Source: an uncultured archaeon (lineage in GTDB: Archaea; Asgardarchaeota; Heimdallarchaeia; Heimdallarchaeales; Kariarchaeaceae). Taken from it: a DNA stretch of 31,510 nucleotides. The position numbers and the translations under genes are program-made. The notes under the pieces were generated by a model. The model made no database searches and was not told the origin of the DNA. It worked only from the letters and a program-made list of their open reading frames with translations. Location: NCBI GenBank assembly GCA_964645535.1, contig CAZYCQ010000012.1:1-31510 (forward strand). The letters are read 5' to 3'. The stretch's first letter is position 1, and every line of letters begins with the position of its first letter. Positions 3,247 through 28,847 of this stretch are shown here, in pieces.

Positions 3247-5118
3247 GTGGTGCTGCGTTTTTTTCTGTACAGGACACGACTAGTAGTTGCATCCATTTTT
3301 TTAATCTCCTTTGTTTGGGGATGGATTTCACAAACTTATTCCTTCATCTCCGATGCCACTTATCTTATCCTACTGAATTTTTGGTTAGTAGTAATCACAG
3401 CCTCTTTTAATTACCTGCTACGGACTTTTGTCAAGGGTAACAACTTTGAACGTTATGGAACCATTGTAATCCTTATTTTCATCTTAGCAATCACCTTCAC
3501 CCTTAATCCAGCTCTAAAATTTTTGTCCAAAAAATACCCATTTCCTTTTTCTGCGATTGGCATGATTTCCTTGCTAAATGTTCTTTATCTTTCCTTTCAA
3601 CTATATCGCCCTGTGGACATATGGCCAAGGAATGCAATACGGTTTCTGAAGAAGCCTAAATACAAATTCACAGAACAACATTTGCAGATATTTCTAATCG
3701 GGGCAGGTTATCTGTTTTTCGAGGGATTGATCGTACTCTCCCCATATCAGGGTTTCATTATTTCATGGCTAGTCTTAATAATAATTCATCTTACTGCCCT
3801 CTATTTTCTTAGGCAAATTTATTGGATACCGACTGCACCAATTGGTGTTTGGAAGGATGCAGAAAGCCGTTACACCAAAACTAACGATTTCATGCTTTCT
3901 TCTGATAGATTGTTGGGTTATTCCATCGGTAGAATAAATTACGAGATTGATCGGGATTTAAACTTAGAACAGACCAAATCATCTCTAAATCAATTAATGC
4001 AATTTGCGACCCACGATATGATCCATCCAGAAGTATTTTGGAGGGAACTTGACAGACTCAATGGTATCCTAATCTCAGACCCCTTTTCCATGGATAATCT
4101 TGCTTTTGCAAAAATTCTGATAAATTCCGCAAGAAGATGGGGCTTTCAAGGAACTCCCGCCAAAAAATACATATTGCTTGTTTTACCTCCTCTTCTGAAA
4201 CGCTACCGCATTTTCGCTCTTCTTCCCAAATATCTTCAGGATACTGTTTATGAAATGTTTGAACTTTTTCACCTTTTGGGGATCGGAAATGAGCTTTGGG
4301 AATCCATCATCGACTATGAGATCACTACTCGAAGATATGCAAAAATGAAGCTTCCCATTCTTTCTGGAGCGCCTGTACGTCAAAGTTGGAGATTTGAATG
4401 GAACTACAGACTATTCTTCGGTGAAGAGGGCAAAAAACTTGTAGAACAGGATCTTGAGAAATTCAGGCAAATTTCCGCTAAAAGAAACTATATGTCTGAC
4501 AATTTGACAGAAAGAAATTCTTGGGAAAAAGATCTTGAAATCGCAGCGATCCACCTGTTCTCGACCTTCTTTGGGCAAAATAGCAGAATGCCTTGGGGAG
4601 GCTCTGTACGATATCCATATGAGGAATATGATTGGGTTAGACGGGGATATCTTCTTGATGATTTTTCCGAAGAGGCATATAGGAGTATCCTCCCCCCTGT
4701 TCGCACAAAAACTGGTCAACAAAAGGAAAAAACTGCAAAGGTTCCGAAAGCCTATCAGAAACATTACATTGAGGCCTATCTAAATGAGGGAAAGGTTCTA
4801 CAACTACCTGAAAAAAGCAATCGAAAACAGCCTCGGAATTGGGAAGTAAAAAAATTGTTTGCAGTTTTCCTCTTCTTTGTCTTTGCATTGACAGTGAATT
4901 TGGGATTGCATCATCCTGCGGTTGCAGCTACATTCGGTGTCCTTGGGATCTCTATGCTGATTTTCTCAATAGAAGATATTCAAGTCAGGAAAATTCTTGA
5001 GAATACAATTCCGATCACCAATGAATTTGAACTCCAACCGAAAACTTTCGAAATAAATCTATTTCTTTTTTCAATCGGTCTTCTTTGGAGCATTATTGGT
5101 GCTGCTTTCCTTATCTGA
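3247..5118 (+). CDS. Hypothetical membrane protein (N-terminal TM bundle, large soluble middle domain, C-terminal TMs)
   Basis: 623-aa ORF with about 6 N-terminal and 3 C-terminal hydrophobic helices. TATA-like TTTTAA lies 24 nt upstream. Confidence 0.8.
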   Translation: MVLRFFLYRTRLVVASIFLISFVWGWISQTYSFISDATYLILLNFWLVVITASFNYLLRTFVKGNNFERYGTIVILIFILAITFTLNPALKFLSKKYPFPFSAIGMISLLNVLYLSFQLYRPVDIWPRNAIRFLKKPKYKFTEQHLQIFLIGAGYLFFEGLIVLSPYQGFIISWLVLIIIHLTALYFLRQIYWIPTAPIGVWKDAESRYTKTNDFMLSSDRLLGYSIGRINYEIDRDLNLEQTKSSLNQLMQFATHDMIHPEVFWRELDRLNGILISDPFSMDNLAFAKILINSARRWGFQGTPAKKYILLVLPPLLKRYRIFALLPKYLQDTVYEMFELFHLLGIGNELWESIIDYEITTRRYAKMKLPILSGAPVRQSWRFEWNYRLFFGEEGKKLVEQDLEKFRQISAKRNYMSDNLTERNSWEKDLEIAAIHLFSTFFGQNSRMPWGGSVRYPYEEYDWVRRGYLLDDFSEEAYRSILPPVRTKTGQQKEKTAKVPKAYQKHYIEAYLNEGKVLQLPEKSNRKQPRNWEVKKLFAVFLFFVFALTVNLGLHHPAVAATFGVLGISMLIFSIEDIQVRKILENTIPITNEFELQPKTFEINLFLFSIGLLWSIIGAAFLI

Positions 5119-5129
5119 ATGTAAATAAG

Positions 5130-5136
5130 TATATAA
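5130..5136 (+). promoter_or_regulatory. TATA box (TATATAA)
   Basis: Lies 24 nt upstream of GTG 5160, which begins a signal peptide. Confidence 0.6.
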
Positions 5137-5159
5137 GTCGGAAAGTTTTCACGAATTCA

Positions 5160-6578
5160 GTGAACAGATTTCCTCTTTTTATTCTTCCTCTAGTCTTGAT
5201 CATTGCTCTTCCTTCTCAAGCACAGACGGATTGGACTCCCATGACTCCGATCAACACAAGAGAAGGGATTACCTTCAGTCATCCTGCATTTCTTCCATAT
5301 ACATTCCAGTCCCGTCCAGATCTGTTTATGGGATCTGAAGATGGTACCATCTATCATCAACCTATTATCAAAGCAAATAGAACTGTAGTTGAATTTGGAG
5401 GATTCGAGGCGGGACTCATTACTGCTCTTTTCCCACGGGGCGCACCATTTGCGTATGATATGAATAAGGATGGATTGGATGACCTAATCATCGGTGATCA
5501 ACAAGGCAAGGTTCATCTTCTTCTTCAGACTCCTTCAGGAAGTTTCATTCTGAATGATTCTTTCGTTAAAGGAATACAGGTTTCACAATTCGCAAAACCA
5601 ACCGCTGGAGATATTGATGGGGATGGAAAAGATGAAATAATCGTTGGTGAAGGGAATGGATCCCTTGTTGTCTTTTTCAATAGAGGGACATTAGCCTCCC
5701 CCTCATGGGAAATTGATCGGTCGTTATTTAATTTCCCTTTAGGAGAACATCCCGCACCTTTTGCGTTCAAGCCTACCTCTGACAGTCAGATTTCTGACTT
5801 GGTAATTGGAACGGAAAGATTTGGCATAATCTATGTGAAAAACCTTTCAAAAGATGGAAAAACAGCATTTGAAGTAATCCAATTCACGAATGGAGGTAAT
5901 CCTTTCCGAGAGATTGATTTTGGATCCAACACCTTTCTCACACCTTCTTTAGTTGACTTGGATGGAGATTCAAATCTAGATCTTGTGGTGGGTACAAAGG
6001 ATGGTCATCTTGAGGTATTCCGGAATTCTGGCATTGATTTTCTCACTGTCCAACGAGAGGCAGGGTTGAATCAGACAATCATAATTACCTTGGTGCTACT
6101 TCTATTTGCTGTTTCCGGAGTTGCCATTGTCTTCTACCTTAAAGGACGTCCCCAATCAGGACAGCCTATTTATCTGATGTTGGTTCATTCTTCGGGTGTC
6201 ACTCCTTTCTCCTATTCTTTCAGCAGGACGGAAGTTGAAGATGATGCTCTTGCAGGTGGGGCGTTTGCAGGCGTTTCCACAATCATTTCTGAAATCACTT
6301 CGGGATCATTGGAATCCTTGGATCTTGGAGACCGAAAAATCCTTGTCAGTCGGGTTCCATTTTTAAAAGATCCGAATTCAGAACTTCTTGTTCTCCTTTG
6401 GGCAACCAATGATGATCCCCACTTAAGAAAGCTCACAGAAGATCTTGCACATTATGTTGCCTCCAACTTTGAAGATATCTTCACATTGGGTGAAATAACT
6501 GATGAATTCACCTATAAAACTGAAGCACGAATTGAAACCCTCTTCCAAAAATACCTTGAAACAGAAAACAATAAATAG
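5160..6578 (+). CDS. FG-GAP/VCBS-repeat single-pass membrane protein with C-terminal longin/roadblock-like domain
   Basis: Signal peptide MNRFPLFILPLVLIIALPSQA. Repeats DMNKDGLDDLIIG, DIDGDGKDEIIVG and DLDGDSNLDLVVG. TM IIITLVLLLFAVSGVAIVFYL. Tail begins IYLMLVHSSGVTPFSYSF. Start moved from 5085 to GTG 5160. Confidence 0.8.
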   Translation: MNRFPLFILPLVLIIALPSQAQTDWTPMTPINTREGITFSHPAFLPYTFQSRPDLFMGSEDGTIYHQPIIKANRTVVEFGGFEAGLITALFPRGAPFAYDMNKDGLDDLIIGDQQGKVHLLLQTPSGSFILNDSFVKGIQVSQFAKPTAGDIDGDGKDEIIVGEGNGSLVVFFNRGTLASPSWEIDRSLFNFPLGEHPAPFAFKPTSDSQISDLVIGTERFGIIYVKNLSKDGKTAFEVIQFTNGGNPFREIDFGSNTFLTPSLVDLDGDSNLDLVVGTKDGHLEVFRNSGIDFLTVQREAGLNQTIIITLVLLLFAVSGVAIVFYLKGRPQSGQPIYLMLVHSSGVTPFSYSFSRTEVEDDALAGGAFAGVSTIISEITSGSLESLDLGDRKILVSRVPFLKDPNSELLVLLWATNDDPHLRKLTEDLAHYVASNFEDIFTLGEITDEFTYKTEARIETLFQKYLETENNK

Positions 6579-8478: not shown

Positions 8479-9147
8479 TCAAAATAAACTGGATGCAAAC
8501 AAATAAATGCCTGTAAAGATTAAGGAGATTGCAACAATTTTTTTGAATGTGGTATAACGCTGTCTGATCCGCACCAATTGAGAAGACGACTGAATAAAGG
8601 AAATAACGAAAAAAGGCACACTTGCACCAAAAGAGAAAGCAAGTAAGTTTAACATCTGTCCAATGAAAGTCAGGGTCAAAATGGAAACCCACATGGTAAG
8701 AAAATATCCCATTGCACAAGGGGCTGCAATAATCGTGTAAAATACACCCAAAACAAACGCAAATAGGTAATTGCTTTTAGTATCTCCCGAATAGAGCATT
8801 TCTTCTACTTTTGAGGGGATACTCATCGATAAGCCAATCGATTTCTCTGCTAACATGAGAATCCCTATGATCAATAAAATTAGGGCTTGTATTCTTGCAA
8901 ATATAACATAATTGGCAATAAGGAACTTTTTCAGTGTAGAAGTCGTAATTAATGTAAAGAGTGTAAGAACAGCGACCAAACCCAAAATCAATGCAAATAC
9001 CATGCCAATAGACTCAAAAAACTTCATTTTTCTGGTCTGCGAGACCTGAATTGTCAAAAATGTAGGAAGTAACGGAAACAAGCATGGACTGAACGAAGAA
9101 AGAAGACCCAATGAAAAATTTAAAGATAAAAGAAGAAGATTGGTCAT
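8479..9147 (-). CDS. ccdA: CcdA/DsbD-type transmembrane disulfide reductase
   Basis: Six TM helices with the paired motifs SPCLFPLLP and AAPCA. ATGA overlap with the upstream thioredoxin gene. Confidence 0.88.
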   Translation of the reverse strand: MTNLLLLSLNFSLGLLSSFSPCLFPLLPTFLTIQVSQTRKMKFFESIGMVFALILGLVAVLTLFTLITTSTLKKFLIANYVIFARIQALILLIIGILMLAEKSIGLSMSIPSKVEEMLYSGDTKSNYLFAFVLGVFYTIIAAPCAMGYFLTMWVSILTLTFIGQMLNLLAFSFGASVPFFVISFIQSSSQLVRIRQRYTTFKKIVAISLIFTGIYLFASSLF

Positions 9148-9812
9148 TTTTCACTCCTCATAACTTTTTGCTGTTCTGGAACTCCAATTTCTTTGTTCCC
9201 TGTCAATTTGAAATAAATGATGACACCTATCGTGAAAATCGCAAAAAACTGGAACATGGGATTCCCAAAAAGCTCTCCGAGGATTCCACCATTGTCTGAT
9301 GTTTCTTCATTTGCTGCCAATACTATTGTTGTTTCTCCTCCCTTATACTCCTCTATAGCTTTTGCTATTTCTGAAGCAGTTGTGATCTTCCCCCACTTTT
9401 TGATAAGATTTCCAGTTTCATCAAACAAAAAAATTGAAGGTAATCCAGTAACTTCATACTGGTTTTGAAAATTCTTATCTATATCAATTCCAAATTCCCA
9501 AGTGGCCTCATTATCCGACTTCAATTTTTGCATCTTCTTTATGTCATCATTAATGGTATCAACACTTAGGCTAAGAATCATGATTTCCGGTGCACTTCTC
9601 TTTAACGTTTTCAAGTAGGTCAATTGAATTTCGCATCCTGTACACCAAGATGCGGTAGCGTCAACAATAAACAAATTCCCTTCAAATTTGTCAAAAGAAT
9701 AATATGAATTGTCTTCGCTCAAATATTTTCCTGACAAACCATATCCTGAAACATTGGCAATACTGCCAATTAGCAGCGTTAGAATTACCATGAACTCTAC
9801 CGATTTCCTCAT
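9144..9812 (-). CDS. Exported TlpA/ResA-like thioredoxin with C-terminal membrane anchor
   Basis: Signal peptide, ASWCTGC active site, GLPSIFLFD cis-Pro loop and C-terminal TM. TTTATA at 9843-9838 lies upstream. Confidence 0.88.
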   Translation of the reverse strand: MRKSVEFMVILTLLIGSIANVSGYGLSGKYLSEDNSYYSFDKFEGNLFIVDATASWCTGCEIQLTYLKTLKRSAPEIMILSLSVDTINDDIKKMQKLKSDNEATWEFGIDIDKNFQNQYEVTGLPSIFLFDETGNLIKKWGKITTASEIAKAIEEYKGGETTIVLAANEETSDNGGILGELFGNPMFQFFAIFTIGVIIYFKLTGNKEIGVPEQQKVMRSEK

Positions 9813-13255: not shown

Positions 13256-13323
13256 GTGAATTCAAGGTTATACGGAATCCCCTGTACATTTACTTAAAAA
13301 TATAAAGTATTTTCTGGAAAGTG

Positions 13324-14322
13324 ATGGGTATAGAAGAAACGGGAAAAACAGTTATCATCCTGTTGAACATGGGTGGACCGTCCAATTTGGATGAGGTTCA
13401 GCCTTTTCTGTTTAACCTCTTTTCGGACAAGGATTTGATTGATCTCCCACTGTTTATGAAACCATTTCAAAAACCCCTTGCTAAATTGATCGCTCTATTC
13501 CGGTCAAAAGGAACAAAGGAAATGTATCGTCAAATAGGTGGAGGGAGTCCTATTCTTTCTTTGACCAAAAACTTCGCTGCCAACGTAGAGATGGGTCTGA
13601 GAGAAAGGGGCGTAAACGCAGAAGTGAAGGTTGTAATGAGATATACCCACCCAAGAGCAAAGGAAATCGTAAAGACCTTGCAAAGGGGGGATTCTGTGGT
13701 TCTTTTTCCCCAATATCCCCATTTTGCGAACTCAACCACTGGTTCGAGTATCAAAGATTTTTTGCAATCATATTTTGAGCGTTTTCCAAAAGGTAAAGAT
13801 CCAATTGTTATCGGTGATTGGGGTACTGAACCGTTTTATATCAACTGGTGGATATCTGGAATAAGAGAGGAAGTTTCTAGACTCCATGAAATTGGGGTGA
13901 AAAATGATATCCATGTAATTTTCTCCTCACATGGTCTTCCCATGCGATATTTCAAAAAAGGGGAAACATACAAAGACAGTATTGACAAGTCTCGTCTCAA
14001 GATTATTGAAGGTCTAAAAGATCTTGATGTGACTTTCCATCAGGCATATCAGAGCCGGGCTGGACCATTTCCTTGGTTACAGCCATATACTGATGAACTG
14101 ATCGAAGAGTTGGCGGGAAGCAAGGCTGTAGTGATGGTTCCGCTTGGATTTGTTACAGACCATGTAGAGACCTCTTATGAAATAGACATTTTATATGGTA
14201 ATTTAGCCAAGCAACAGAATATTGACCATTTCAGAAGAATTCCTGTTCCAAACGATAATCCATCATATTCCGAAGAGGCGGCGAATTTTCTTGCTCACCT
14301 TATTCAAGGAGGGGATACCTAA
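13324..14322 (+). CDS. hemH: Ferrochelatase (protoporphyrin type, PpfC-like)
   Basis: LLNMGGP, YRQIGGGSP, FSSHGLP, YQSRAGPFPWLQPYT and DHVETSYEID motifs. No Cys, so no 2Fe-2S cluster. Start is GTG 13321 or ATG 13324. Confidence 0.96.
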   Translation: MGIEETGKTVIILLNMGGPSNLDEVQPFLFNLFSDKDLIDLPLFMKPFQKPLAKLIALFRSKGTKEMYRQIGGGSPILSLTKNFAANVEMGLRERGVNAEVKVVMRYTHPRAKEIVKTLQRGDSVVLFPQYPHFANSTTGSSIKDFLQSYFERFPKGKDPIVIGDWGTEPFYINWWISGIREEVSRLHEIGVKNDIHVIFSSHGLPMRYFKKGETYKDSIDKSRLKIIEGLKDLDVTFHQAYQSRAGPFPWLQPYTDELIEELAGSKAVVMVPLGFVTDHVETSYEIDILYGNLAKQQNIDHFRRIPVPNDNPSYSEEAANFLAHLIQGGDT

Positions 14323-15407
14323 TTAATCTTAAAATTTTCACGTGGAGAATTGGAAAAACCCCTCAATATGAGGTGGAAAGAGCCATCTCATCTATAAAAT
14401 GCTACAATTTGGAAAAATTGAAACAGCAATGCCAATCAATCTTTTGGCTTGAAACCTGTCAACGACTCATTATTGCGATCACTGGTAATACTGATCAAAT
14501 TGAGGAACTTATCCTCACATCAAAACTTTTCCCTCCGGAAAGATTTTCTGGAGTTGAAGGGGTTCATCATCTCCTAGAAGTTGTTTCGTCTTTTGATTCC
14601 ATTGTTGTCGGTGAAGATCAAATCTTGCATCAATTTAAAGTAGCCTACAAGGAATCCGAACAGTTTATGGATCGTATTCTGAAAAGGCTAATTCAAGGTG
14701 TAATTCGTGCAGGTAAACGAATAAGGTCTCAAACGATTTTCGGAAAATCAAGGAAGTCAACAATTTCTGTTGTGATAGACCATTTCAAGGAAGAGCTTAG
14801 CCATGCCCAAAGAGTTTCAATCATTGGAAGCGGTCAAATGGCAAAAATCATCATTGACAGTCTTAAAGAATTTCCGTTCGCAATTTCAGTTTTCAGTAGA
14901 ACCGAATCACGAATCAATATGAAAGTTGGTGGATTGAAGGTCAATCCGTTCTCTAATCTTATTCCTTCAGATATTATTTTTGTAGCATCTAAACCGGGAA
15001 GTCCAAAGCTGAAATTGAAAGATTTTGAAAACTTGGATCCTGACTGTTGCATTTTCGATTTTGGAATGCCTCGACAGACAAGTTCTGATCTTGAAAGCCA
15101 TTTTGTCAAATTATTTACACTTGAAGATCTTCTTCAACTTTCAAGAAAGAACAAAGAAGATACAGGCTTGGGGGATATCCGTACAATTTTGGACAAAGAG
15201 GCCAACAAAATCATGAGAGAGATAAGACGACTTGAAACTGCTCATATATGGGATGAATTACGGCGTAGTCTAAGATCGTTGGCGATCCGTGAAAAGGATT
15301 TGTTCTTAAATGACAGTCCTGAAGCGGAGCTGAAATTCCAAAAATTCGTCAATAAGATAATACACGTCACTCAAAAAAAAGTTGAGGAGGTATTCATTGA
15401 TCAATGA
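14322..15407 (+). CDS. hemA: Glutamyl-tRNA reductase (short form)
   Basis: Catalytic ETCQR, DSIVVGEDQILHQFKVAY, Rossmann IIGSGQMA and DFGMPR motifs. First canonical start is GTG 14373, but the frame is open upstream to an SD-preceded ATT at 14322. Confidence 0.9.
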   Translation: MNLKIFTWRIGKTPQYEVERAISSIKCYNLEKLKQQCQSIFWLETCQRLIIAITGNTDQIEELILTSKLFPPERFSGVEGVHHLLEVVSSFDSIVVGEDQILHQFKVAYKESEQFMDRILKRLIQGVIRAGKRIRSQTIFGKSRKSTISVVIDHFKEELSHAQRVSIIGSGQMAKIIIDSLKEFPFAISVFSRTESRINMKVGGLKVNPFSNLIPSDIIFVASKPGSPKLKLKDFENLDPDCCIFDFGMPRQTSSDLESHFVKLFTLEDLLQLSRKNKEDTGLGDIRTILDKEANKIMREIRRLETAHIWDELRRSLRSLAIREKDLFLNDSPEAELKFQKFVNKIIHVTQKKVEEVFIDQ

Positions 15408-16966
15408 TTCGTATTGGAACAAGAAAGAGCAGATTGGCTCTTGCCCAAGCCAACTTGGTCAGAGAAAGAGTTGAGGAGCTCGGTTTTGAGACACAATTGA
15501 TTACCTCCACATCAAAAGGTGATCTGGATCTTATTTCTCCACTTACTTCGTTACGAGGAACTGGGATATTTACAGGAAATTTGGAAAAGATGCTTCTTCA
15601 AAATCAAATTGACATTGCAGTCCACAGTCTCAAAGATATGGCATTGGAAAATCCCAATGGATTGGAAATCCGTGCAGTTCTTCCACGGGAAAGTCCTGAG
15701 GATGTTCTTCTCATCAAAGAAGACAAAGTCATATCAAAGTTTCCTTTACTGTTGCAACCACATTCAAGAATTGGAACTGGTTCTTTGAGGAGACAAGCAC
15801 AAATAAAAGAGTTCGATAAAAGTACAATTCTTTTAGATATCAGAGGAAATATTGACAGAAGAATTGAACTGCTTAAAGAGGGGTATCTAGATGGGATCAT
15901 TCTTGCAGCAGCCGTTCTGGAAAGAATGGATATTCACATTCCAAATGGGTTCACTGCAATAAGGTTGCCACTTTTTCAATTTCCCACAGCCCCCGGTCAA
16001 GGAACGATTGCTGTTCAAGTGAGAAAAGGGGAATTGCAGGAATTGCAGGCAATTAACCATGTAACAACATGGCAGGCCATCACAATAGAAAGGGAGCTTT
16101 TCGGGTCATTTCCAGGAGGGTGTAACAATGGTGTAGGGATCACTGTTAAACCCACTTGTGATGGCCTTATCCTCTTCTCATTTTACGTGCAAAATGGAAT
16201 TCACCGAAGCATAATGGCTGCAAAATCTGAAAGTGAGTTAAAGGAAAAATTCTATTCCTGGATCATCAACAAACCAATCAATAGAATACAGACAAGAAGA
16301 ACTGCCATTGTATTCACGGATGAAGCTACTGGAAAACGGTATGTCCAGAAACTCGAACAACATGGGATAGAGGCAATTTCTCTTCCCCTCATGGCTTGGT
16401 CAATCAATTACCCTCTTCTTATGGACTCCCATCTTCAATCTGCATGGAAGGATGCAGATTGGATAATTGTAACGAGTAAGCATGCTGTCCCCTTTCTTTC
16501 GAAATTAAAGACAGTCTATTCAAGAACTGGTTTCAGAACTGCCATTGTTGGTTCTGCCACCGCTGATGAAATGAGGGAATATGGTCTTCCTGTACACTTC
16601 GTCTCAACATCAGGAGTTCAGGAAATAAAGAAATTTTTGAAAAGTCAAAAGGGAAAAATACTCTATCTCTCTGGAAAGCATGTTTCAGATCCCTTGGATG
16701 AATTTAGTAACCGGTTGACCAGAATTCAGATTTATCAAACTCATCTGCTTGATGTTTCATTGCCATTCAAACCCGATTATGCTGTGGTGTTTTCCCCAAG
16801 ATCTGCAATTCATCTTCTGAACCATTTGGGCAAGGATTCTGCACAAAATTGGATTGCAATTGGCAACAAAACGGCAAGTGCCCTCTCGCAAATGGGGGTG
16901 AAACCGTTGGTTGCAAGGGAACCCACCCCTGAGGGAGTGATTGAGACAATAATTAAGGAGGCATAG
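15404..16966 (+). CDS. hemC: Fused porphobilinogen deaminase / uroporphyrinogen-III synthase (HemC-HemD)
   Basis: IRIGTRKSRLALAQA, AVHSLKD, IGTGSLRR, IRGNIDRR and cofactor Cys in GGCNN. C-terminal HemD motifs WIIVTSKHAV, VGSATA, VFSPRSA, IAIGNKTA and PTPEGV. Confidence 0.93.
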   Translation: MIRIGTRKSRLALAQANLVRERVEELGFETQLITSTSKGDLDLISPLTSLRGTGIFTGNLEKMLLQNQIDIAVHSLKDMALENPNGLEIRAVLPRESPEDVLLIKEDKVISKFPLLLQPHSRIGTGSLRRQAQIKEFDKSTILLDIRGNIDRRIELLKEGYLDGIILAAAVLERMDIHIPNGFTAIRLPLFQFPTAPGQGTIAVQVRKGELQELQAINHVTTWQAITIERELFGSFPGGCNNGVGITVKPTCDGLILFSFYVQNGIHRSIMAAKSESELKEKFYSWIINKPINRIQTRRTAIVFTDEATGKRYVQKLEQHGIEAISLPLMAWSINYPLLMDSHLQSAWKDADWIIVTSKHAVPFLSKLKTVYSRTGFRTAIVGSATADEMREYGLPVHFVSTSGVQEIKKFLKSQKGKILYLSGKHVSDPLDEFSNRLTRIQIYQTHLLDVSLPFKPDYAVVFSPRSAIHLLNHLGKDSAQNWIAIGNKTASALSQMGVKPLVAREPTPEGVIETIIKEA

Positions 16967-16969
16967 CAA

Positions 16970-17983
16970 ATGCAACCGAAACCAATGAGTGAACCAATTT
17001 TTACAACCCCCATCAAACGTTTTCATCGTTATCGAAAAACCGAAGTGATCAGAGATAGTCTCGCCGAAGTAAAGATTCTCGAAGAGGATCTCATTCTGCC
17101 CATGTTCATTCGCCATGGATCAAATGAAATCAAAGAGATCCCTCAAATGCCTGGCTTCTACCAAATCACTACTGATCAAGTAATTGACTATCTTGCTGAT
17201 TTAGTAGAATTGGGTCTAAGACAAGTCATTCTTTTTGGAATCCCCTCCATCAAAGATGAACTTGGAAGTGGTGCCTTGGATCCAAGAGGGCCTGTCCCTC
17301 AAACCATCAGTCTGCTGAAGGATCAGTTTGGATCAAGGTTGGAGATTTATGCAGATGTCTGCCTTTGTGAATATACTTCACATGGACACTGTGGTATAAT
17401 TGATCCCAATGGTTTGATCAATAACGATTCTTCATTGCCTCTCCATGCCGAGGCGGCAGTTACTTACGCAGAATCGGGTGCAGATTGGGTTGCCCCTAGC
17501 AGTATGCTTGACGGAAGGGTAAACGCCATCAGAAGAGCCTTGGATGACAGAGGGTTCCGAAATGTTGGGATTCTCAGCTATTCTGCTAAATTTGCCAGTA
17601 ATTATTATGGTCCATTCAGGCAGGCCGCAGAGAGTAGTCCTTCGTTTGGCGATAGAAAAACCTACCAAATTGACTTCAGATCTCGGCGTCAACCGCTCAT
17701 GGAATTAATGGAAGATGAACGGCAGGGTGCTGATGCATTAATGGTGAAACCGGCACTGGCTTATTTAGATATCATTGCCCATGCTCGTCAAATAACCAAC
17801 TTACCTATTTATGCCTATAATGTGAGTGGGGAATACGCCTTTGTCAAATTTGGGGCAAAACAGGGAATATTCAATGAACCGGATGTCGTTATGGAAAATC
17901 TTACTGCTATCAAACGTGCAGGTGCTGATCTGATCCTGACTTACCATGCAGAAGATATTCTCAAAAAGGGGTGGCTTAAATGA
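16970..17983 (+). CDS. hemB: Porphobilinogen synthase (ALA dehydratase, Zn type)
   Basis: DVCLCEYTSHGHCG, SYSAKFAS, YGPFR, MVKPALAYLD and AYNVSGEY motifs. GGAGG 8 nt upstream. Confidence 0.97.
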   Translation: MQPKPMSEPIFTTPIKRFHRYRKTEVIRDSLAEVKILEEDLILPMFIRHGSNEIKEIPQMPGFYQITTDQVIDYLADLVELGLRQVILFGIPSIKDELGSGALDPRGPVPQTISLLKDQFGSRLEIYADVCLCEYTSHGHCGIIDPNGLINNDSSLPLHAEAAVTYAESGADWVAPSSMLDGRVNAIRRALDDRGFRNVGILSYSAKFASNYYGPFRQAAESSPSFGDRKTYQIDFRSRRQPLMELMEDERQGADALMVKPALAYLDIIAHARQITNLPIYAYNVSGEYAFVKFGAKQGIFNEPDVVMENLTAIKRAGADLILTYHAEDILKKGWLK

Positions 17984-19254
17984 GTGATTGGGTTTCACGT
18001 GCAAAACAAGTCATGCCAGGTGGAGTTTCCTCTCCTGTAAGGAGTCTAAATGCTGTTGGGGGGAACCCCATTGTAGTTACGGATGCCAATGGTGCAAGGT
18101 TACGAACAATTGATGGAAGAAACCTCATTGATTATTGCATGAGTTTCGGTCCTCTCATTTTAGGACATGCACCAGAGCCGATTGTGAAAGCTATAATTGA
18201 GCAAGTCAAAAAAGGTACATCTTATGGCACATTGTCACCCATAGAGGTGGAATTGGCAGAACAGATTGTACATTGCCATCCTGCTATTGATTGGGTACGT
18301 TTCGTCAATAGTGGTACGGAGGCAGTGATGTCTGCAATTCGACTGGCAAGAGGAAAAACAGGTCAGGAACTCATTGTGAAATTTGAAGGAACCTATCATG
18401 GTCATGCAGACAGTATGCTTGTCAAAGGAGGGAGTGGACTTGCAACTTTAGGCATCAGTTCAAGTGCAGGGGTTCCGGAAAATGTGGCGGCACAAACTTT
18501 GGTTCTTCCTTTGGGGAACAAAGATGTCTTAAAACAAGCTTTTGAAGAATTTGGCGAAAAAATAGCTGCAGTCATTATTGAAGGAGTCCCCGCCAATAAT
18601 GGTCTTTTGATCCAAGAAAGGGATTTCTTGTTTGCTATTCAGAAAGAATGCAGAAAGTACGGAAGTCTTTTCATACTTGACGAAGTAATAACGGGTTTCA
18701 GATTGGGGCTTGGAGGAGCCACCAGTTATTATGGACTGGATCCAGATATAGTCACTCTCGGAAAGATAATCGGTGGTGGTCTGCCTGTAGGTGCATATGG
18801 TGGACGGAAAGATCTCATGGAATGGATAGCCCCTCTAGGGAAAGTCTATCAGGCAGGTACTCTCAGTGGCAACCCACTTGCCATGACCGCTGGTCTAACA
18901 ACCTTGAAGCATCTTGAAGAAAATCCTTCAATATACGCTCAATTAAGGGATAGAACAATTCAACTTGCAAAAGGAATAACAGAAATCTTTGATGCAAAAG
19001 GCAAAAAAGTGAACGCGATAACTCTTGAATCTCTTTTCTGGATGGTTTTCGAAGAAGTATCTGAACCTCTTCTCAGTCCTTCCCAACTAACCAGGGAGGC
19101 AATTAGTCAATATGCTCACTTCCATCAATTGGCTTTGAACGGGGGAATATACCTTCCACCAAGTGCGTTTGAAGTTGCATTCCTTTCCACATCGCACAAT
19201 GAAGAAATCATTGGGGAAACCCTTGACATAGTTGAAAGGAGTTTGCGAACATGA
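17980..19254 (+). CDS. hemL: Glutamate-1-semialdehyde 2,1-aminomutase
   Basis: MPGGVSSPVR, FVNSGTEA, DEVITGFR, PLP lysine in TLGKIIGGG, and YQAGTLSGNP motifs. ATGA overlap with hemB. Confidence 0.97.
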   Translation: MSDWVSRAKQVMPGGVSSPVRSLNAVGGNPIVVTDANGARLRTIDGRNLIDYCMSFGPLILGHAPEPIVKAIIEQVKKGTSYGTLSPIEVELAEQIVHCHPAIDWVRFVNSGTEAVMSAIRLARGKTGQELIVKFEGTYHGHADSMLVKGGSGLATLGISSSAGVPENVAAQTLVLPLGNKDVLKQAFEEFGEKIAAVIIEGVPANNGLLIQERDFLFAIQKECRKYGSLFILDEVITGFRLGLGGATSYYGLDPDIVTLGKIIGGGLPVGAYGGRKDLMEWIAPLGKVYQAGTLSGNPLAMTAGLTTLKHLEENPSIYAQLRDRTIQLAKGITEIFDAKGKKVNAITLESLFWMVFEEVSEPLLSPSQLTREAISQYAHFHQLALNGGIYLPPSAFEVAFLSTSHNEEIIGETLDIVERSLRT

Positions 19255-20273
19255 ACTCAAAAGAACTCTTCAACTCAGTTTTTGAAGGTAAGGATGTTGA
19301 AAGACCACCACTTTGGTTTATGAGACAGGCGGGAAGATATCTTCCCGAATATTTGTCACTTAGAGAGGGCAAAACCTTTGAACAAATGGTGATGGATCCG
19401 AACATCGCTTCCGAAATTACATTGCAACCAATTCGTCGATTTGATCTGGATGCAGCCATTATCTTCTCAGATATTCTTATTCCTCTCTATTCAATGGAAA
19501 GGGGTCTTGAAATTAAACCTGGTGTCGGTCCTGTCATAGAAAAGCCATTGGCTCTGCCTGAAGAAGTTGATGAATTATACCACCCTGTCCCCAAAAAAGA
19601 TTACCCATATCTCTCGCAATCCATTGCACAAGTCAGAGCGACCATCCCTGAGAAGTGGTTAATCGGGTTCTCAGGTGCACCATTTACCTTGGCAAGCTAC
19701 CTTATTGAAGGGAAATCAACAAGAAATGCACTGACAACAAAGGTTTTCGCATACAAATACCCTGATGCTTTTGCCAAACTGTTGGATAAACTTGTTTCAA
19801 TAGTGTTGCAACAACTTAAGGCACAAATTGGTGCCGGAGTCGATATGGTTCAAATCTTTGATTCTTGGGCAGGCTTTCTAAGTCCAACTCAATATAGAGA
19901 TTGGATACTCCCATCCCTGCATCGTATTATGGAGGAAATTGAAGTACCAAAAATTATCTATGCACGGGGAAGTTCTCATCTTCTTGCAGTATTGGATACT
20001 TGCAATCCTGATGGATTTAGCATTGACAATTCAATCTCGTTGCAAACTGCAAGGAAAATCGTGGGTGATCATAAGGTTCTTCAAGGAAATTTCGATCCTG
20101 CAATTCTCCAAACCACTCCTAGATTGGTTAGGGAAAATCTCAAACAACTTCTTGGGAAAATTGACAATCCGCGCTACATTTTCAATTTGGCTCAAGGGAT
20201 TGACAAGAATTCAATGTTAGATTGTGTACATGAAATGGTTACAACTGTAAAAAATTGGAGGTATACATCATGA
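19251..20273 (+). CDS. hemE: Uroporphyrinogen decarboxylase
   Basis: PPLWFMRQAGRYLPEY, DAAIIFSDIL, GFSGAPFTLASY, QIFDSWAG and QGNFDP motifs. Confidence 0.97.
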   Translation: MNSKELFNSVFEGKDVERPPLWFMRQAGRYLPEYLSLREGKTFEQMVMDPNIASEITLQPIRRFDLDAAIIFSDILIPLYSMERGLEIKPGVGPVIEKPLALPEEVDELYHPVPKKDYPYLSQSIAQVRATIPEKWLIGFSGAPFTLASYLIEGKSTRNALTTKVFAYKYPDAFAKLLDKLVSIVLQQLKAQIGAGVDMVQIFDSWAGFLSPTQYRDWILPSLHRIMEEIEVPKIIYARGSSHLLAVLDTCNPDGFSIDNSISLQTARKIVGDHKVLQGNFDPAILQTTPRLVRENLKQLLGKIDNPRYIFNLAQGIDKNSMLDCVHEMVTTVKNWRYTS

Positions 20274-21640
20274 GTTCAATTGAAGATGAAATAACTCCTG
20301 AACTTATTGAGAGATATGATTTGCATGTTCCAAGATATACCAGCTATCCGACGGTTCCGAATTGGTCAAAAGAATTCAAACCTACAGGTTTTATCGATAT
20401 GATTGATGAGGCCTCTCATAAAAAGGAGCCCCTGAGCCTTTATATTCATATTCCCTTCTGCATTAGAAGATGCCTCTTCTGCGCTTGTAATGTTCTCATA
20501 ACTCGAAGGGAAGATAAAGTCAAAAAATACTTGCTTTACCTAAAAAAGGAGATTGATTCAATTTCTTCAAATTTGAAGGAACGAAATGATGTGATACAGA
20601 TACATTTGGGAGGTGGTACCCCTACTCATCTTTCGCCTAGTCAAATGGCCGATCTCTTCCATCACCTGTGGAATCGTTTTAGAATTGAAGATGGAGGCGA
20701 GCTTTCGATTGAAGTGCATCCTTCTGTGACCAGTAGGGAACATTTAGATGTCCTCTATGACTTTGGTTTCAATCGTCTTTCAATGGGTGTCCAAGATTTC
20801 GATCCTAAGGTGCAGGAACGTCTTAACCGACATCAGACCTTTGAAGAAACCAATGAACTTATCACATACGCTCGAAAGCTCGGATTTGAAAGCATCAATG
20901 TCGATCTCATTTATGGGCTCCCCTATCAAAGCCCTGAAGGGTTCCGAAATACGCTCGAAAAAATTGAGGAAATTCGACCGGATCGGCTGGCAATGTATAG
21001 CTATGCCCATTTCCCAAATATCTTTCGGCATCATAAGCACATTCCCCTTGTTGAAATTCCACAAGGAAGGGATAAACTTCAGCTTTTCTTGAATGCAAGA
21101 AGATTTCTCCTAGATATCGGATATAGGCAAATCGGTTTTGATCATTTTGCTCTTGAAACCGATGGGCTCTGGAAAAGCTTCAAAAGAAAAACCCTTAGGC
21201 GAAATTTCATGGGCTATACAACAAAAAGAGGAACGGATCTCATTGGCTTTGGCTATTCTGCCATTAGTGAGCTAGAATCAGGATATGCACAAAACACCAA
21301 GGACATGTTGATGTATGAAACGTCTATTGACAAGGTCGGGGTCGCAACTGCCAAAGGCCATTACCTGTCACCTGAGGATCGTTTCCGAAAACGTATCATA
21401 ATGGATTTCCTTTGCCTTGGAGAAATCAATTTGGAGAATCTCAAAAAGAACAAGGAGGGAAACAAGATTTTGAGTAGCAGAATGGAGGTTCTTGAACATT
21501 TTGAATCCATTGGTTTCCTTCAAAAGAAGGCCAATGGGTGGAAAGCCACTCCTTTGGGAACGGTTTTCTCAAGAGTGATTGCTTCCATATTCGATGCATA
21601 TTACGATGCAGGCAAGCATTCGTTCTCTAAGTCAATATAG
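20270..21640 (+). CDS. hemN: Oxygen-independent coproporphyrinogen III dehydrogenase (radical SAM)
   Basis: PRYTSYPT N-terminal motif, YIHIPFCIRRCLFCAC, GGGTPT and RRNFMGYTT, typical of true HemN rather than HemW. ATG 20270 has GGAGGT upstream and an ATGA overlap. Confidence 0.95.
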   Translation: MSSIEDEITPELIERYDLHVPRYTSYPTVPNWSKEFKPTGFIDMIDEASHKKEPLSLYIHIPFCIRRCLFCACNVLITRREDKVKKYLLYLKKEIDSISSNLKERNDVIQIHLGGGTPTHLSPSQMADLFHHLWNRFRIEDGGELSIEVHPSVTSREHLDVLYDFGFNRLSMGVQDFDPKVQERLNRHQTFEETNELITYARKLGFESINVDLIYGLPYQSPEGFRNTLEKIEEIRPDRLAMYSYAHFPNIFRHHKHIPLVEIPQGRDKLQLFLNARRFLLDIGYRQIGFDHFALETDGLWKSFKRKTLRRNFMGYTTKRGTDLIGFGYSAISELESGYAQNTKDMLMYETSIDKVGVATAKGHYLSPEDRFRKRIIMDFLCLGEINLENLKKNKEGNKILSSRMEVLEHFESIGFLQKKANGWKATPLGTVFSRVIASIFDAYYDAGKHSFSKSI

Positions 21641-21649
21641 GTGAGAGTT

Positions 21650-23005
21650 ATGAAGCACAACACTATTATCATAGGAGCGGGAATAACTGGACTTGTTATC
21701 GCCAATGAATTAATGGACAAGGGAATTGACCCTGAGCAAATTCTCATTCTAGAAAAAGAAAATAGGGCTGGAGGATTGATTGCCACTTCCATTGAGGATG
21801 GGTTTAGTTGCGAGTGGGGTCCTGAAGGACTTCGAGGATCATCGACAAACACCCATCGGGTTTTTGAATTGGCAGGTATTGAAAAAATAGCATCAACAGA
21901 ACAGGCAAAGATCAGGTATATTTTGAAGAAAGGCAAGCTGATTTCTCTTCCAACCAACCCGATCAAGGCAATATTCAGTTCTGTCTTGTCTCCTTTTGGA
22001 AAACTTAGATTACTGATGGAACCCTTTGTATCCCCCGTTGATACAGATGAAAGCATTGCAACCTTTTTTGAAAGGAGATTTGGAAAGGGAGTTCTACCAC
22101 TTGTGGACGCATTTGTTTCTGGCATTTTTGGAGGAAATCCCTCCAAATTGAGCATTGAGCATTCATTTCCTCCCCTCAAAAGGGCTGAAAGACTGAAAGG
22201 ATCAGTCATCAGGGGGCTCATGGCTATGAAAAAAGGAACAGGACAGAAGGGTAAAAGAAATCGGCAACCCTTTCTGTTCACACCTTCCGGTGGAATGCAA
22301 CAACTTCTGAAGCAACTTTCTGAAAAGGTAAACGTAGTTTATGGAATGAAGGTGAAAGAAATCAAAAAATTGTCAAACGGTTTCATTATTCTAACAGATC
22401 AAAATGAATGGCAAGCCGAGAAGGTTGTTGTTGCAACAGGTATCCAAGGAATTTGCAATATCAAAATTGAAGGAAACTATCCCTCTCTAAAACCCGAAAT
22501 ATCCAAGGTTTCTATTGTTTCCATGGGCTTCACAAAGGATAGCTTCAGACGTCCTCCCAAGGGTTATGGTTTCCTAATTCCTGAATCCGAAAAAAAATTC
22601 CTACTGGGTGTCCTTTTCACTTCCAACCTTTTCCCTCAAAAGGCACCTCAAAACACAGTACTCCTAAGATGTTTCGTTGGAGGAGAAAGACATGAAGATC
22701 GTGCTTTAATGGATAAGGAAGAACTTATTGCCAAGGTTCAAGAAGAAGTTACTGACCTTTTAGAGGTAACTAAGCCACCGGTCTACATCTCAATCCAAAG
22801 ACATGCTCCCAAAGGAATCCCTCAACTCAACTTGGATCATGAATTCAATTTAAATTGGAAACATAAGATTGAAAAGAAATTTCCGAACCTCTATTTTGCA
22901 GGAATTGGGTGGACAAGTATATCCTGTGATGGTCTCATCAGTGAAGCAATTGAGTTGGCTCAAAAATTGACCTCCTCGAACAACGATCAAGCAATGAACC
23001 ATTGA
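21650..23005 (+). CDS. hemY: Protoporphyrinogen oxidase, HemY family (FAD)
   Basis: IIIGAGITGL, RAGGLI, EWGPE, DESIATFFERRFG, FVSGIFGG, GYGFLIP and LRCFVGG motifs. ATG 21650 follows AGGTGA. Confidence 0.93.
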   Translation: MKHNTIIIGAGITGLVIANELMDKGIDPEQILILEKENRAGGLIATSIEDGFSCEWGPEGLRGSSTNTHRVFELAGIEKIASTEQAKIRYILKKGKLISLPTNPIKAIFSSVLSPFGKLRLLMEPFVSPVDTDESIATFFERRFGKGVLPLVDAFVSGIFGGNPSKLSIEHSFPPLKRAERLKGSVIRGLMAMKKGTGQKGKRNRQPFLFTPSGGMQQLLKQLSEKVNVVYGMKVKEIKKLSNGFIILTDQNEWQAEKVVVATGIQGICNIKIEGNYPSLKPEISKVSIVSMGFTKDSFRRPPKGYGFLIPESEKKFLLGVLFTSNLFPQKAPQNTVLLRCFVGGERHEDRALMDKEELIAKVQEEVTDLLEVTKPPVYISIQRHAPKGIPQLNLDHEFNLNWKHKIEKKFPNLYFAGIGWTSISCDGLISEAIELAQKLTSSNNDQAMNH

Positions 23006-23252: not shown

Positions 23253-24836
23253 GTGATTGACCTTTTTTTTATTTCTTATTTAATTGGCTCACAGGTCGGC
23301 CGTGAAATCACTTCTCGTCTTGGATCATTTGGTGAGCCTGTAGACGACACTATAAAGAAGGTAATTGGTGAAGAAACTTCTTCATTCTTTAACAAAATAT
23401 CAAAAAAACTTTTCAAGAGGAAATTGTTCAAAGAAAAAGTCGGAGACATGAGTAAGGAGGAATTTTTTAAATATGTAAAAGAGGAAGCCAATCGAAATAA
23501 AACAGATATTTTAGAAATGGTAAGGGAGGAGATTCCTATGATACTTGATCAATCCCTTGCAAAATACAATGTCCATACGGCAAAGATTGAGAATGTAGTC
23601 TCTCAAGTGATTGACGAGTACATGCAAAAAGACTTCATGGCTTTAATGACTGAAAAATTTCAGGATTTGAGAAACAAAGAAACAATACTCAAAGAGCAGG
23701 AAATTAAAGAATTAATTTATGAGACATTGTACGAGGGAGATGAATCTCTTCTGTTCAGTGATTCTGCAAAACGTGTGCTCCCTGAAATCCAACTATTAAA
23801 GATTGTAAGAATGATTGCTAAGAGTAGGCAATCCCGAAGAATTTCATTATTAGATTTACAGAAGATAATCGGGAAAGATTTAGAGGAAATAAATCAGATG
23901 CTTATGCGTCTTATTTCAGAAGGTTGGATACTTGGAAAGCTGGACACGAGAGGGACATTGGATCTTACAGATGATTATCTGCAACTAGATGAGAATTGGG
24001 AGCTTCAAAGGGATCCTGACATAATTAAACAAGAAATCATTGAAGCAATTAATAGCAATGATCTCTCAAAATTATATTATTGGCGTACGAAAATTGACGA
24101 TCTTTATCTCATCAAACATAGGTTCAGAGAACAAATTGATCAAGCAATTTTGAAAAAAGAAGAAGAGATCATTCAAAAAATAAAGTCCAATTGGAAAAAA
24201 GGAGATGATGTCACCACTCTCTCCAAAATTGTCAAAAAATTACAGATTCATCCCGAAAAAGAACCTCTTTTAACTGCCTTGAAAAAGGAAGAACAGCAAA
24301 TCCGACTGCTTGACAATGAGTTTGTTCAGATAAAATCCATGTTTGCATCTAATGCTAGACAACGTTTGGGAGAAATCAAAATAAACTCAGTGCATTCACG
24401 AAGTCTCCATCAAAAGAAAACTCAACTAGAACGCATGTTTAGCCCTTCCCATTACCATGGAACGAGAATTATTTCAATAGAAGTAGAATTCCTTTCTCAA
24501 CTGGAAAAGATGTTAGGAACATCAATTCCCATGCTGAGTGATTTTCAAGAAAGGCATTTTGGAATTGTGATTGAAGATGAGAGGATAACTGAACTCTACC
24601 TCTCCTCAAAAGATATTTCAACGCTTCCTCAGACGATTGGGGAATTGAATTGCTTAAAAGTTCTTAATCTGAATTGGAATCGTTTTGAAGAACTTCCCAG
24701 GGAATTGAAAAAATTGAAAGGATTACGGGAACTTCATCTTGTTGGCAATCCTCTTTCCAGAGAAAAAGGTAATATTTCAATCCTTAAGTATCTGATCAAT
24801 AATGGATGCAAAATTTTGGGTTATGTAATTGATTAG
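23253..24836 (+). CDS. Helical protein with PCI-like winged helix and short C-terminal LRR module
   Basis: ISLLDLQKIIGKDLEEINQMLMRLISEGWILGKLD fits the PCI pattern. Three LRRs follow (ITELYLSSKDISTLP, LKVLNLNWNRFEELP, LRELHLVGNPL). Confidence 0.8.
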   Translation: MIDLFFISYLIGSQVGREITSRLGSFGEPVDDTIKKVIGEETSSFFNKISKKLFKRKLFKEKVGDMSKEEFFKYVKEEANRNKTDILEMVREEIPMILDQSLAKYNVHTAKIENVVSQVIDEYMQKDFMALMTEKFQDLRNKETILKEQEIKELIYETLYEGDESLLFSDSAKRVLPEIQLLKIVRMIAKSRQSRRISLLDLQKIIGKDLEEINQMLMRLISEGWILGKLDTRGTLDLTDDYLQLDENWELQRDPDIIKQEIIEAINSNDLSKLYYWRTKIDDLYLIKHRFREQIDQAILKKEEEIIQKIKSNWKKGDDVTTLSKIVKKLQIHPEKEPLLTALKKEEQQIRLLDNEFVQIKSMFASNARQRLGEIKINSVHSRSLHQKKTQLERMFSPSHYHGTRIISIEVEFLSQLEKMLGTSIPMLSDFQERHFGIVIEDERITELYLSSKDISTLPQTIGELNCLKVLNLNWNRFEELPRELKKLKGLRELHLVGNPLSREKGNISILKYLINNGCKILGYVID

Positions 24837-25366: not shown

Positions 25367-25900
25367 TCATCGATAAAAAATCACTTTGTCATTTATTGAA
25401 AAACGAATCAATTTGTTGAAGTCAAACCTTGGTCCATAAATGGCTCTATGATCCAGATACTTGTCATTTGTTACAATATTGGCATTTTTTGCAATTGCTT
25501 CCTCAATGATCTCCAGATCATCATCCCTGTCTGGATCTGCTTCAATCACCCAACCTATATTGATTAAACGTATCAGTTCCGGAGGGTCATCAATCGAATA
25601 TCTAAGGGCATTCGAAATGTAGATAATTGGATCCATTCCTGCTCTGACCAGTGAAGCTCTGACACGTTTTATGTTTACCACCTTTGGCGGGGAACCGGTA
25701 TGATAGGCCACATTGGTTCCATCAACAACTACAGGTGTTCGCCTTTTTTGGAATGTCTTTTGAAGGGTGGTAGTTTCTTTTTGTGCATAGGCCACATTTC
25801 CGTGAAATCTCACCATGTGGTTCTCTACCTGATTTTTTGGAATGGATTTGCCACAGAGTCTACACTTGACGTTCACTGATGCAAAATAATGATCTGACAA
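25367..25900 (-). CDS. C2H2 zinc finger fused to Regnase/Zc3h12a-like NYN (PIN) ribonuclease domain
   Basis: CRLC-x12-HMVRFH finger. Acidic active-site motifs VVVDGTNVA, DDDLEII and IVTNDKYLDH. Confidence 0.85.
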   Translation of the reverse strand: MSDHYFASVNVKCRLCGKSIPKNQVENHMVRFHGNVAYAQKETTTLQKTFQKRRTPVVVDGTNVAYHTGSPPKVVNIKRVRASLVRAGMDPIIYISNALRYSIDDPPELIRLINIGWVIEADPDRDDDLEIIEEAIAKNANIVTNDKYLDHRAIYGPRFDFNKLIRFSINDKVIFYR

Positions 25901-27659: not shown

Positions 27660-28847
27660 TTATGCTACGACTACTGGTTGGTGGAGACCTGCGGTTCGAA
27701 CTCCTCTTTCGAAACGGACAAGAACCTTTCGAGAGGTTCTCTTGCCGAATCTTTTAGTGACTGAACCTTTAACTCGCTTGTTGGTATCTGGATAGATTAT
27801 TTCGACCTTCTTGCCAAGGAGGGCTTCCGGATCGAATTCTTTGGTTAGTTGAACAATGAGGGTTTCTGGGTGGATCACCCTTCTGCTTCTTCTGAATGAA
27901 GTAGAATGTCCAATCACTGTTCCTTTTCCAACAATGCTTCTAGGTTTGGATTCACCCTTGGCAACAGATTTGCCCCTGGGTTTGATGACTCTCTCCTGAG
28001 CCACGAGGTCTCTTGGAGTATAAAAGATATCTCCCTTCTTTCTTTCTTTTTTGACGAAGGTTACCTCTTTCTTCTCCTTTACCTTTTTGACTGGACGTTC
28101 TGTTTTCTCTTTCTTTTGAGTCTTCTTTGCTTTGACGGGCTGGGGTTTGGTCGGGATTTCCCGAGTGATTCTGTCAGCTTCAGCCCTCATCTGCTGTCTC
28201 TTCTTTCGAGCTTCAAGCTCTTCCTTGCTCAACCGCCGCGCCGTGACCGTCCAAGTCTCTCTAGCGGCAACCTCACTCTCATCCAGTTTTTCAATCTGTG
28301 CGATTTCCTCTTCGTCAACTTTGGTGACCTGAACTCCTTTTTTCTTTTTGGTCGTGATTACTTCCTCTTCAGGAGGCAATCTTTTCTTCTTTGGTTTCTT
28401 GGCGGTCTTCTTCTTTGGTTTTTCCGCTGGAGGTTCTTCCACCTTTTCTTCAGGTTTTTCCATTGGGGGCTCTTCTACCTTTTCTTCAGGTTTTTCCTCA
28501 ACGGGTTCCTCTTTTGGAGGTTCTTCCTTCTTCTTTTTAGTGGTTTTCTTCTTAGGCTTTTCCTCAGCGGTTTTTTCTTTTTTCTTCTTGGGCTCCTTGG
28601 CTTTCTTCGCAGGAGCCTTTGCTTCTGCAGAAGTTTTAGCCTCTACAGCTTCGGGTGCCTCTTCCGTGGCCACGGAAACTTCTGCGGCATTCTTGATGAT
28701 TTTTGAAGCTGTAGCTTTACCGATGCCCAACTCGACGATTTCCTCAACGGAAGCTTTTGCTAGTTTTTCTGCGGAGTCAAATCCTCCAGCCCTTAATTTC
28801 TCGGCCGTCTTTGGTCCGACTCCTTTGACATTTACTACATCGGTCAT
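27660..28847 (-). CDS. rpl35ae: Ribosomal protein eL33 (L35Ae) fused to N-terminal HhH domain via a long K/E/P-rich linker
   Basis: N-terminal VKGVGPKTAEKL...LGIGKATASKI (double HhH). C-terminal SFRRSRRVIHPETLIVQ...LLGKKV...KGSVTKRFG...VLVRFERG resembles archaeal L35Ae. GAGG SD upstream. Confidence 0.8.
   Translation of the reverse strand: MTDVVNVKGVGPKTAEKLRAGGFDSAEKLAKASVEEIVELGIGKATASKIIKNAAEVSVATEEAPEAVEAKTSAEAKAPAKKAKEPKKKKEKTAEEKPKKKTTKKKKEEPPKEEPVEEKPEEKVEEPPMEKPEEKVEEPPAEKPKKKTAKKPKKKRLPPEEEVITTKKKKGVQVTKVDEEEIAQIEKLDESEVAARETWTVTARRLSKEELEARKKRQQMRAEADRITREIPTKPQPVKAKKTQKKEKTERPVKKVKEKKEVTFVKKERKKGDIFYTPRDLVAQERVIKPRGKSVAKGESKPRSIVGKGTVIGHSTSFRRSRRVIHPETLIVQLTKEFDPEALLGKKVEIIYPDTNKRVKGSVTKRFGKRTSRKVLVRFERGVRTAGLHQPVVVA
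28417..28497 (-). repeat. 36-nt tandem repeat encoding EKPEEKVEEPPx
   Basis: ACCTTTTCTTCAGGTTTTTCC recurs at a 36-nt period inside the linker. Confidence 0.8.

Follow-up and report, generated by a model that had tools for sequence, protein, structure and literature searches.

The question raised by this locus is how an archaeon comes to make heme b along the protoporphyrin-dependent (PPD) pathway of diderm bacteria and eukaryotes, whereas most heme-making archaea use the siroheme-dependent Ahb pathway. The window, as the whole stretch of 31,510 nucleotides that was analysed is called here, covers the initial 31.5 kb of a scaffold of 64 kb from an uncultured member of the Heimdallarchaeia (genome G000; 3.6 Mb, 89% complete), and its positions 13324-23005 on the plus strand are filled by eight long open reading frames (ORFs), identified by Pfam and NCBIfam as hemH-hemA-hemCD-hemB-hemL-hemE-hemN-hemY. 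Nine activities leading from glutamyl-tRNA to heme b are encoded by these eight ORFs, and judging from their sequences it is highly probable that they form a translationally coupled unit making heme b via the classical protoporphyrin-dependent route. This operon is the only tetrapyrrole pathway detected in G000, each of its hem genes being single-copy in the genome. A sequence-only reading of the window had proposed eight coupled genes covering all steps from glutamyl-tRNA to heme b, which is borne out by the domain matches, the motifs and the geometry of the junctions; from these data we infer both the substrate specificity of the enzymes and the co-transcription of the operon.

In gene order the Pfam matches are Ferrochelatase, GlutR_N with Shikimate_DH, Porphobil_deam with HEM4 as a fusion, ALAD, Aminotran_3, URO-D, Radical_SAM with HemN_C, and Amino_oxidase. 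In the order of the reactions (NCBIfam bit score and cut-off in brackets), the short glutamyl-tRNA reductase HemA (14322..15407) and the glutamate-1-semialdehyde aminomutase HemL (17980..19254; NF000818, 540/398) would form 5-aminolevulinate, which would be converted to uroporphyrinogen III by HemB, HemC and HemD. HemB is a Zn-type porphobilinogen synthase (16970..17983, starting at 16970 or 16985; 415/297, ALAD 425 bits) with the motif CLCEYTSHGHC and both Lys motifs, and the hemC-hemD fusion (15404..16966) joins a hydroxymethylbilane synthase (Porphobil_deam at residues 2-210; TIGR00212, 222/164), in which the cofactor Cys is present in GGCNN, to a uroporphyrinogen III synthase (HEM4 at residues 312-513). 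The uroporphyrinogen decarboxylase HemE (19251..20273; TIGR01464, 344/303), which retains RQAGRY, FSDIL and LASYL, would then provide coproporphyrinogen III, from which the radical S-adenosylmethionine (SAM) enzyme HemN (CgdH, an oxygen-independent coproporphyrinogen dehydrogenase; 20270..21640; TIGR00538, 463/325; motifs PRYTSYP and CxxxCxxCxC) is expected to generate protoporphyrinogen IX without O2. Finally, the FAD-dependent protoporphyrinogen oxidase HemY (21650..23005, starting at 21641 or 21650; TIGR00562, 215/98) is suggested to oxidise protoporphyrinogen IX, O2 being the usual electron acceptor of this enzyme, whereupon iron would be inserted by HemH (13324..14322; TIGR00109, 258/125), a predicted protoporphyrin-type (PpfC-like) ferrochelatase with LNMGGP, RY, SHGLP and DHVET motifs. 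In the enzymes other than HemA the catalytic motifs are likewise intact and conserved among relatives. The junctions comprise four ATGA overlaps, one overlap of 1 nt (TAA/ATT) and gaps of 3 and 0-9 nt, and a TATA-like AT-rich stretch lies at 13295-13306, about 20 nt upstream of hemH; a scan of the stretch for sigma-70 promoters and terminators, with models unsuited to archaea, stayed at chance level.

Both the PPD set of diderm bacteria and eukaryotes (HemA/L/B/C/D, HemE, HemN or HemF, HemY/G/J and PpfC) and the coproporphyrin-dependent (CPD) set (HemE, CgoX/HemY, CpfC/HemH and ChdC/HemQ) have HemE, HemY-type and HemH-type folds in common with the operon, while the Ahb pathway shares with it the steps to uroporphyrinogen III. 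It was claimed initially that ahb, cysG/cobA and chdC are missing from the window, and indeed none is found among its long ORFs; the further claim of a complete PPD route was supported by genome-wide profile searches, in which, within the limits of completeness, neither chdC nor ahb was detected elsewhere. ChdC (PF06778) was found neither in G000 nor in any relative with a complete HemN-type operon, in a search of 41 genomes in which controls were detected as expected. The best AhbD match in G000 reached 49 bits against a cut-off of 500, and the tetrapyrrole methylase (PF00590) and AhbA/B (PF17805) domains were not found there, AhbC not having been searched separately; hence the genome differs from those using the Ahb pathway in that methylase, AhbA/B and AhbD were not found, and within the class AhbD-like genes are confined to family f5. 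Likewise, no HemF, HemJ or HemG domains were found in G000.

On the CPD route HemY and HemH would act on coproporphyrinogen and coproporphyrin, respectively, an unassembled ChdC or another enzyme would finish heme, and HemN would be a HemW-like bystander. This is considered very unlikely, even though HemE has its nearest solved structure in B. subtilis, a member of the same family (G009) carries ChdC and the genome is incomplete, and even though HemY-type oxidases serve both routes, CgoX and PgoX being closely alike in structure, with substrates that can overlap (PMC10427985). For HemY itself the best structural matches are 1sez (plant mitochondrial PPO, 161 bits) and 2ivd (159), followed by 3i6d from B. 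subtilis (126), whereby sequence cannot separate PgoX from CgoX. HemN, however, passes the true-HemN model TIGR00538 and fails that of HemW (145/205), with HemZ and HutW far under cut-off, and HemH scores 181 bits with mitochondrial FECH as compared to 77 with Firmicute CpfC, human FECH being its best match in the PDB. The NMGGP type of HemH found here is distinct from the AYGTP and SFGGP types, which were encountered only at the ChdC loci of G009 and of the Thermoplasmata genome G400; in G009 the presence of ChdC is accompanied by an SFGGP-type HemH, by a HemE of different type and by the lack of HemN. Moreover, in three Thermoplasmatota operons (G602, G493 and G508) HemF follows hemE and thus occupies the slot of HemN, which indicates that this slot makes protoporphyrinogen. 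Since neither ChdC nor Ahb enzymes were found, HemN is genuine, HemH is PPD-like and HemY has its nearest structures among PPD-type oxidases, and the HemF slot and G009 serve as controls, the PPD route is the best reading. In comparison with the usual PPD pathway, full enzyme set, motifs and lack of ChdC and Ahb are alike, while the single coupled unit, the HemC-D fusion, the leading position of hemH, the short HemA, the HemE without His and the archaeal host set the operon apart. The organisation of hem operons is poorly conserved in both the PPD and CPD pathways (PMC10427985).

Several points weigh against the assignment to the PPD route: the structural overlap of CgoX and PgoX just mentioned, the incompleteness of a genome in which even the tetrapyrrole-methylase family is without match, so that absences are no proof, the shortness of HemA together with its score, and a HemE without a usually conserved His. 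HemA is the sole operon protein under its NCBIfam cut-off (120/210), and despite its shortness (361 residues from ATT 14322) it retains TCQR, its catalytic motif, and GxGxxA (GSGQMA) for nucleotide binding. Its in-frame starts are ATT at 14322 and, as first GTG, 14373, of which the former is most likely in use, because six relatives have an ATG at the aligned position, at or beside the hemH stop, and because a putative Shine-Dalgarno-like GGAGG (14308..14312), read from the sequence, precedes it by 9 nt. No variant was seen at the ATT in the covering contig, and such a non-canonical start could damp the first committed step. In HemE the C-terminal His of the NLGHG motif is a Gln (around 20190-20210), and it is replaced (by Q, R, I, K, T or V) in every Heimdallarchaeial operon HemE, while it is kept in the bacterial HemE compared.

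That the host is archaeal had been proposed from the sequence and was corroborated by the nearest named homologues, which come from Kariarchaeaceae and LC_2, by the genes flanking the operon, which have orthologues in Kariarchaeaceae, and by a native composition; the operon is hence taken to be native to a Heimdallarchaeia genome, in all likelihood of the family Kariarchaeaceae. The claim that the operon is domesticated likewise holds, as its guanine-cytosine (GC) content (0.411 as compared to 0.413), its tetranucleotide distance (22nd percentile of the genome) and its codon use are ordinary. Concerning read continuity, the left junction is bridged by a Logan contig covering 12295-15367 from a hot-spring run (probably of the source sample) that shows neither joints nor indels over 9-29 kb; the right junction (23.0-23.3 kb) is covered, yet no listed single piece spans it. 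Two further runs (X2 and X3) covered the operon in part or left it uncovered. The unspanned right junction and the bacterial type of all lower genes are what a bacterial contig or a chimeric assembly would have in its favour, a possibility which is nevertheless next to nil and was ruled out on the native composition and codon use, the bridging contig, the flanking orthologues and the recurrence of the operon in over ten archaeal assemblies, in one of which it adjoins rpL15e and eIF5A.

The identical gene order was found in six further genomes (G001-G004, G006 and G016), to which others with fragments of matching order can be added, as well as in LC_3, which we take to be a member of the Hodarchaeales (125 kb contig), in family f6, the sister of the Hodarchaeales family f5, and in the Thermoplasmatota genome G591. 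Thus, the gene order is common to Kariarchaeaceae, a sister family, LC_3 and a high-GC group of Thermoplasmatota. In the latter the same backbone carries HemF in the three genomes named above (L298, L301 and L297 for G602, G493 and G508) and HemN in G591 (L216), while G400, a Thermoplasmata metagenome-assembled genome, contains a hemB-L-E-N-Y piece (L179) and a separate hemC-D-chdC-E-H cluster (L183). A suspicion that the 'Thermoplasmata' contig L179 had been misbinned was rejected on its GC content of 0.68. Occurrence is patchy, whereby true HemN was detected in 11/400 Asgard and 2/301 Thermoplasmatota genomes searched and HemH in 9/12 genomes of f1, 3/3 of f4 and 1/2 of f6, with none found in f2 (0/31), f5 (0/22) and f7 (0/12). 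The Kariarchaeaceae genome G009 (L169:3719-8732 and L168) keeps hemA and hemCD of the operon, followed by a ChdC-Rieske fusion and the HemH described above; its hemB, hemE and hemY are unrelated to the operon versions, an ABM-domain gene lies upstream, and the arrangement looks like a changeover to the coproporphyrin route. As a separate observation, a divergent gene for a TrmB-family regulator stands directly upstream of hemH in LC_3 and G007 (L177:1434-2300; L182:1985-2803), not in the window.

It had further been claimed that this archaeon acquired the whole pathway, and per-gene phylogenies were carried out for HemB, HemN, HemH and HemE. In each of these gene trees the Heimdallarchaeial sequences form one clade, and those of HemB (support 100/99), HemN (99) and HemH (96/98, only some of the HemH sisters being named) unite them with Thermoplasmatota, hence the nearest kin is archaeal. 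HemE is less tidy and counts against such a history, as a single clade uniting the HemE of Thermoplasmatota with those of Heimdallarchaeia was not recovered. No bacterial donor was identified with the limited bacterial sampling available, and a search for related loci with HemE yielded one Heimdallarchaeial genome and otherwise bacterial matches at 34-41%, again without a donor. Of the original claim the bacterial type of the lower genes is retained, while an acquisition by this archaeon is not, since the operon predates the family and has its nearest relatives in Thermoplasmatota. Essentially, it probably represents an old archaeal cassette with bacterial-type lower genes, common to some Heimdallarchaeia and a group of high-GC Thermoplasmatota, whose present distribution would reflect vertical descent, losses and transfers in combination.

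Vertical inheritance from the common ancestor of the Hodarchaeales and the order of Kariarchaeaceae, under which the archaeal host of eukaryotes would have been able to make protoheme in this way, is a doubtful alternative. It accords with the same gene order in LC_3 and f6, with the single Heimdallarchaeial clades of the four enzymes and with the position of LC_3 as deepest branch in the HemN and HemH trees. Against this, several losses would be needed to account for f5, f7 and f2, in which the genes were not found, and the concatenated operon tree conflicts with that of RpoB (which does not include LC_3), the Hodarchaeales genome G078 nesting with f4 and not with LC_3 (approximately unbiased (AU) test, p=1.4e-7). 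G078 includes an 87 kb contig (L180) with a flank gene best matching f6, which makes misbinning of its short contigs unlikely, and hence the conflict points to transfer within the class. The misplacement of G007 is gene-dependent, its HemE following the species tree, and was not counted as a firm transfer. A gain of Cox and heme O synthase by Kariarchaeaceae from Hodarchaeales through transfer was proposed in a preprint (10.1101/2025.02.26.640444), which likewise speaks against vertical inheritance and which a within-class transfer of the operon matches.

The relevance to the eukaryote host lineage, as originally proposed, turned out to be indirect. That the lower heme enzymes of eukaryotes derive from the Asgard operon is exceedingly improbable: LNMGGP is among the motifs that HemH has in common with human FECH, and with one eukaryotic FECH the AU test did not reject a grouping with Heimdallarchaeial HemH (p=0.124), a test that is underpowered; with nine fungal and animal FECH, however, a clade of Heimdallarchaeia and eukaryotes was rejected (p=0.0016, LG+G4). 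The fungal and animal sequences group at 100/99 with an apparently bacterial set (P0364, P0409-P0425), most of which have a similar C-terminal Cys motif and two of which were checked and reside on bacterial contigs (L220 and L221), while HemH of the operon does not possess the C-terminal extension with Cys of the eukaryotic FECH clade. P0364 as lone sister of eukaryotic FECH was dropped when wider sampling gave this larger set. As far as these sequences allow, a descent of fungal and animal ferrochelatase from the Heimdallarchaeial clade is therefore excluded. In addition, PDB similarity scores are lower for human UROD, PPOX and PBGD than for homologues from bacteria or plants, and HemF predominates in eukaryotes, which rely on ALAS outside plastids. 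Most of the Heimdallarchaeia searched lack the operon, and its patchiness (HemN in 11 of 400 Asgard genomes) together with the species-tree conflict leaves its presence in the eukaryote host unproven. It appears unlikely, somewhat more so than vertical inheritance as such, that a PPD cassette in the ancestor of Hodarchaeales and Kariarchaeaceae let the host of eukaryotes make protoheme before the mitochondrion, its enzymes being replaced later by bacterial versions.

A heme demand and a respiratory capacity had also been deduced, of which the demand is real: G000 carries coxB-coxA-coxC beside heme o synthase (C39) and a further heme-copper oxidase of divergent type (C6:76781-78121), which comes with a subunit II of its own, and most likely the operon feeds both oxidases via heme o synthase, the flux to them being presumed. 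What does not follow is respiration, because a search of G000 for the complex III cytochrome b gave no match, which counts against full aerobic respiration and makes respiration indistinguishable from oxygen scavenging. The combination of an O2-independent HemN with an O2-using HemY would suit low-oxygen life. Neither are oxidases tied to heme synthesis: COX1 was found in 23/83 genomes of the class and HemB in 14/83 (19/400 in Asgard genomes searched), the operon HemB being the only HemB found in operon-bearing genomes, and nine f5 Hodarchaeales (G056, G057, G061, G062, G069, G070, G071, G073 and G076; four of them at least 93% complete) have COX1 with no HemB found. Judged by gene content, these nine are candidate heme auxotrophs.

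Heme synthesis via the PPD pathway has been described for Ca. Heimdallarchaeota and unclassified Euryarchaeota, with horizontal gene transfer suggested (PMC11459464), HemE, N, G and H are listed in a pathway figure for Heimdallarchaeia (PMC11193907 Fig. 3), and heme biosynthesis along with complexes III and IV was reported for the class (10.1101/2024.07.04.601786). The PPD route in Heimdallarchaeota is therefore already published, and the operon adds one more example of an established pathway. Pathway and archaeal group agree with the first two reports, which in the parts available record presence by automatic annotation only, with no operon, phylogeny, Thermoplasmatota link or eukaryote test; in the literature searched, neither a conserved operon, nor the Thermoplasmatota sister with its exchange of HemN and HemF, nor the exclusion for eukaryotic FECH was found. 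What had been a remark from automatic annotation thus becomes a defined genetic unit of 9.7 kb that is testable in E. coli, and the cassette would explain the source of heme for the oxidases of Kariarchaeaceae. The archaeal clade of PPD enzymes spans two phyla, its modules (HemN, HemF or the ChdC route) being exchangeable, and claims on eukaryogenesis are limited, given that eukaryotic ferrochelatase seems to come from elsewhere and many Hodarchaeales with oxidases seem unable to make heme.

Outside the operon, the window ends at a scaffold gap of 10 N (G000:C12:31511-31520). A DsbD/CcdA-type membrane protein and a thioredoxin-like gene are located 3.5 kb upstream of the operon on the minus strand (8479-9812), and two leucine-rich-repeat proteins (1136-2077 and 5085-6578), an FG-GAP propeller with weak BBS2/BBS7 matches (23253-24836) and a Zc3h12a-like NYN nuclease (25367-25900) are encoded elsewhere in the window. 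The minus-strand gene at 27660-28847, which has orthologues in other Kariarchaeaceae, encodes an N-terminal helix-hairpin-helix and a C-terminus weakly matching ribosomal L35Ae, with a low-complexity region in between.

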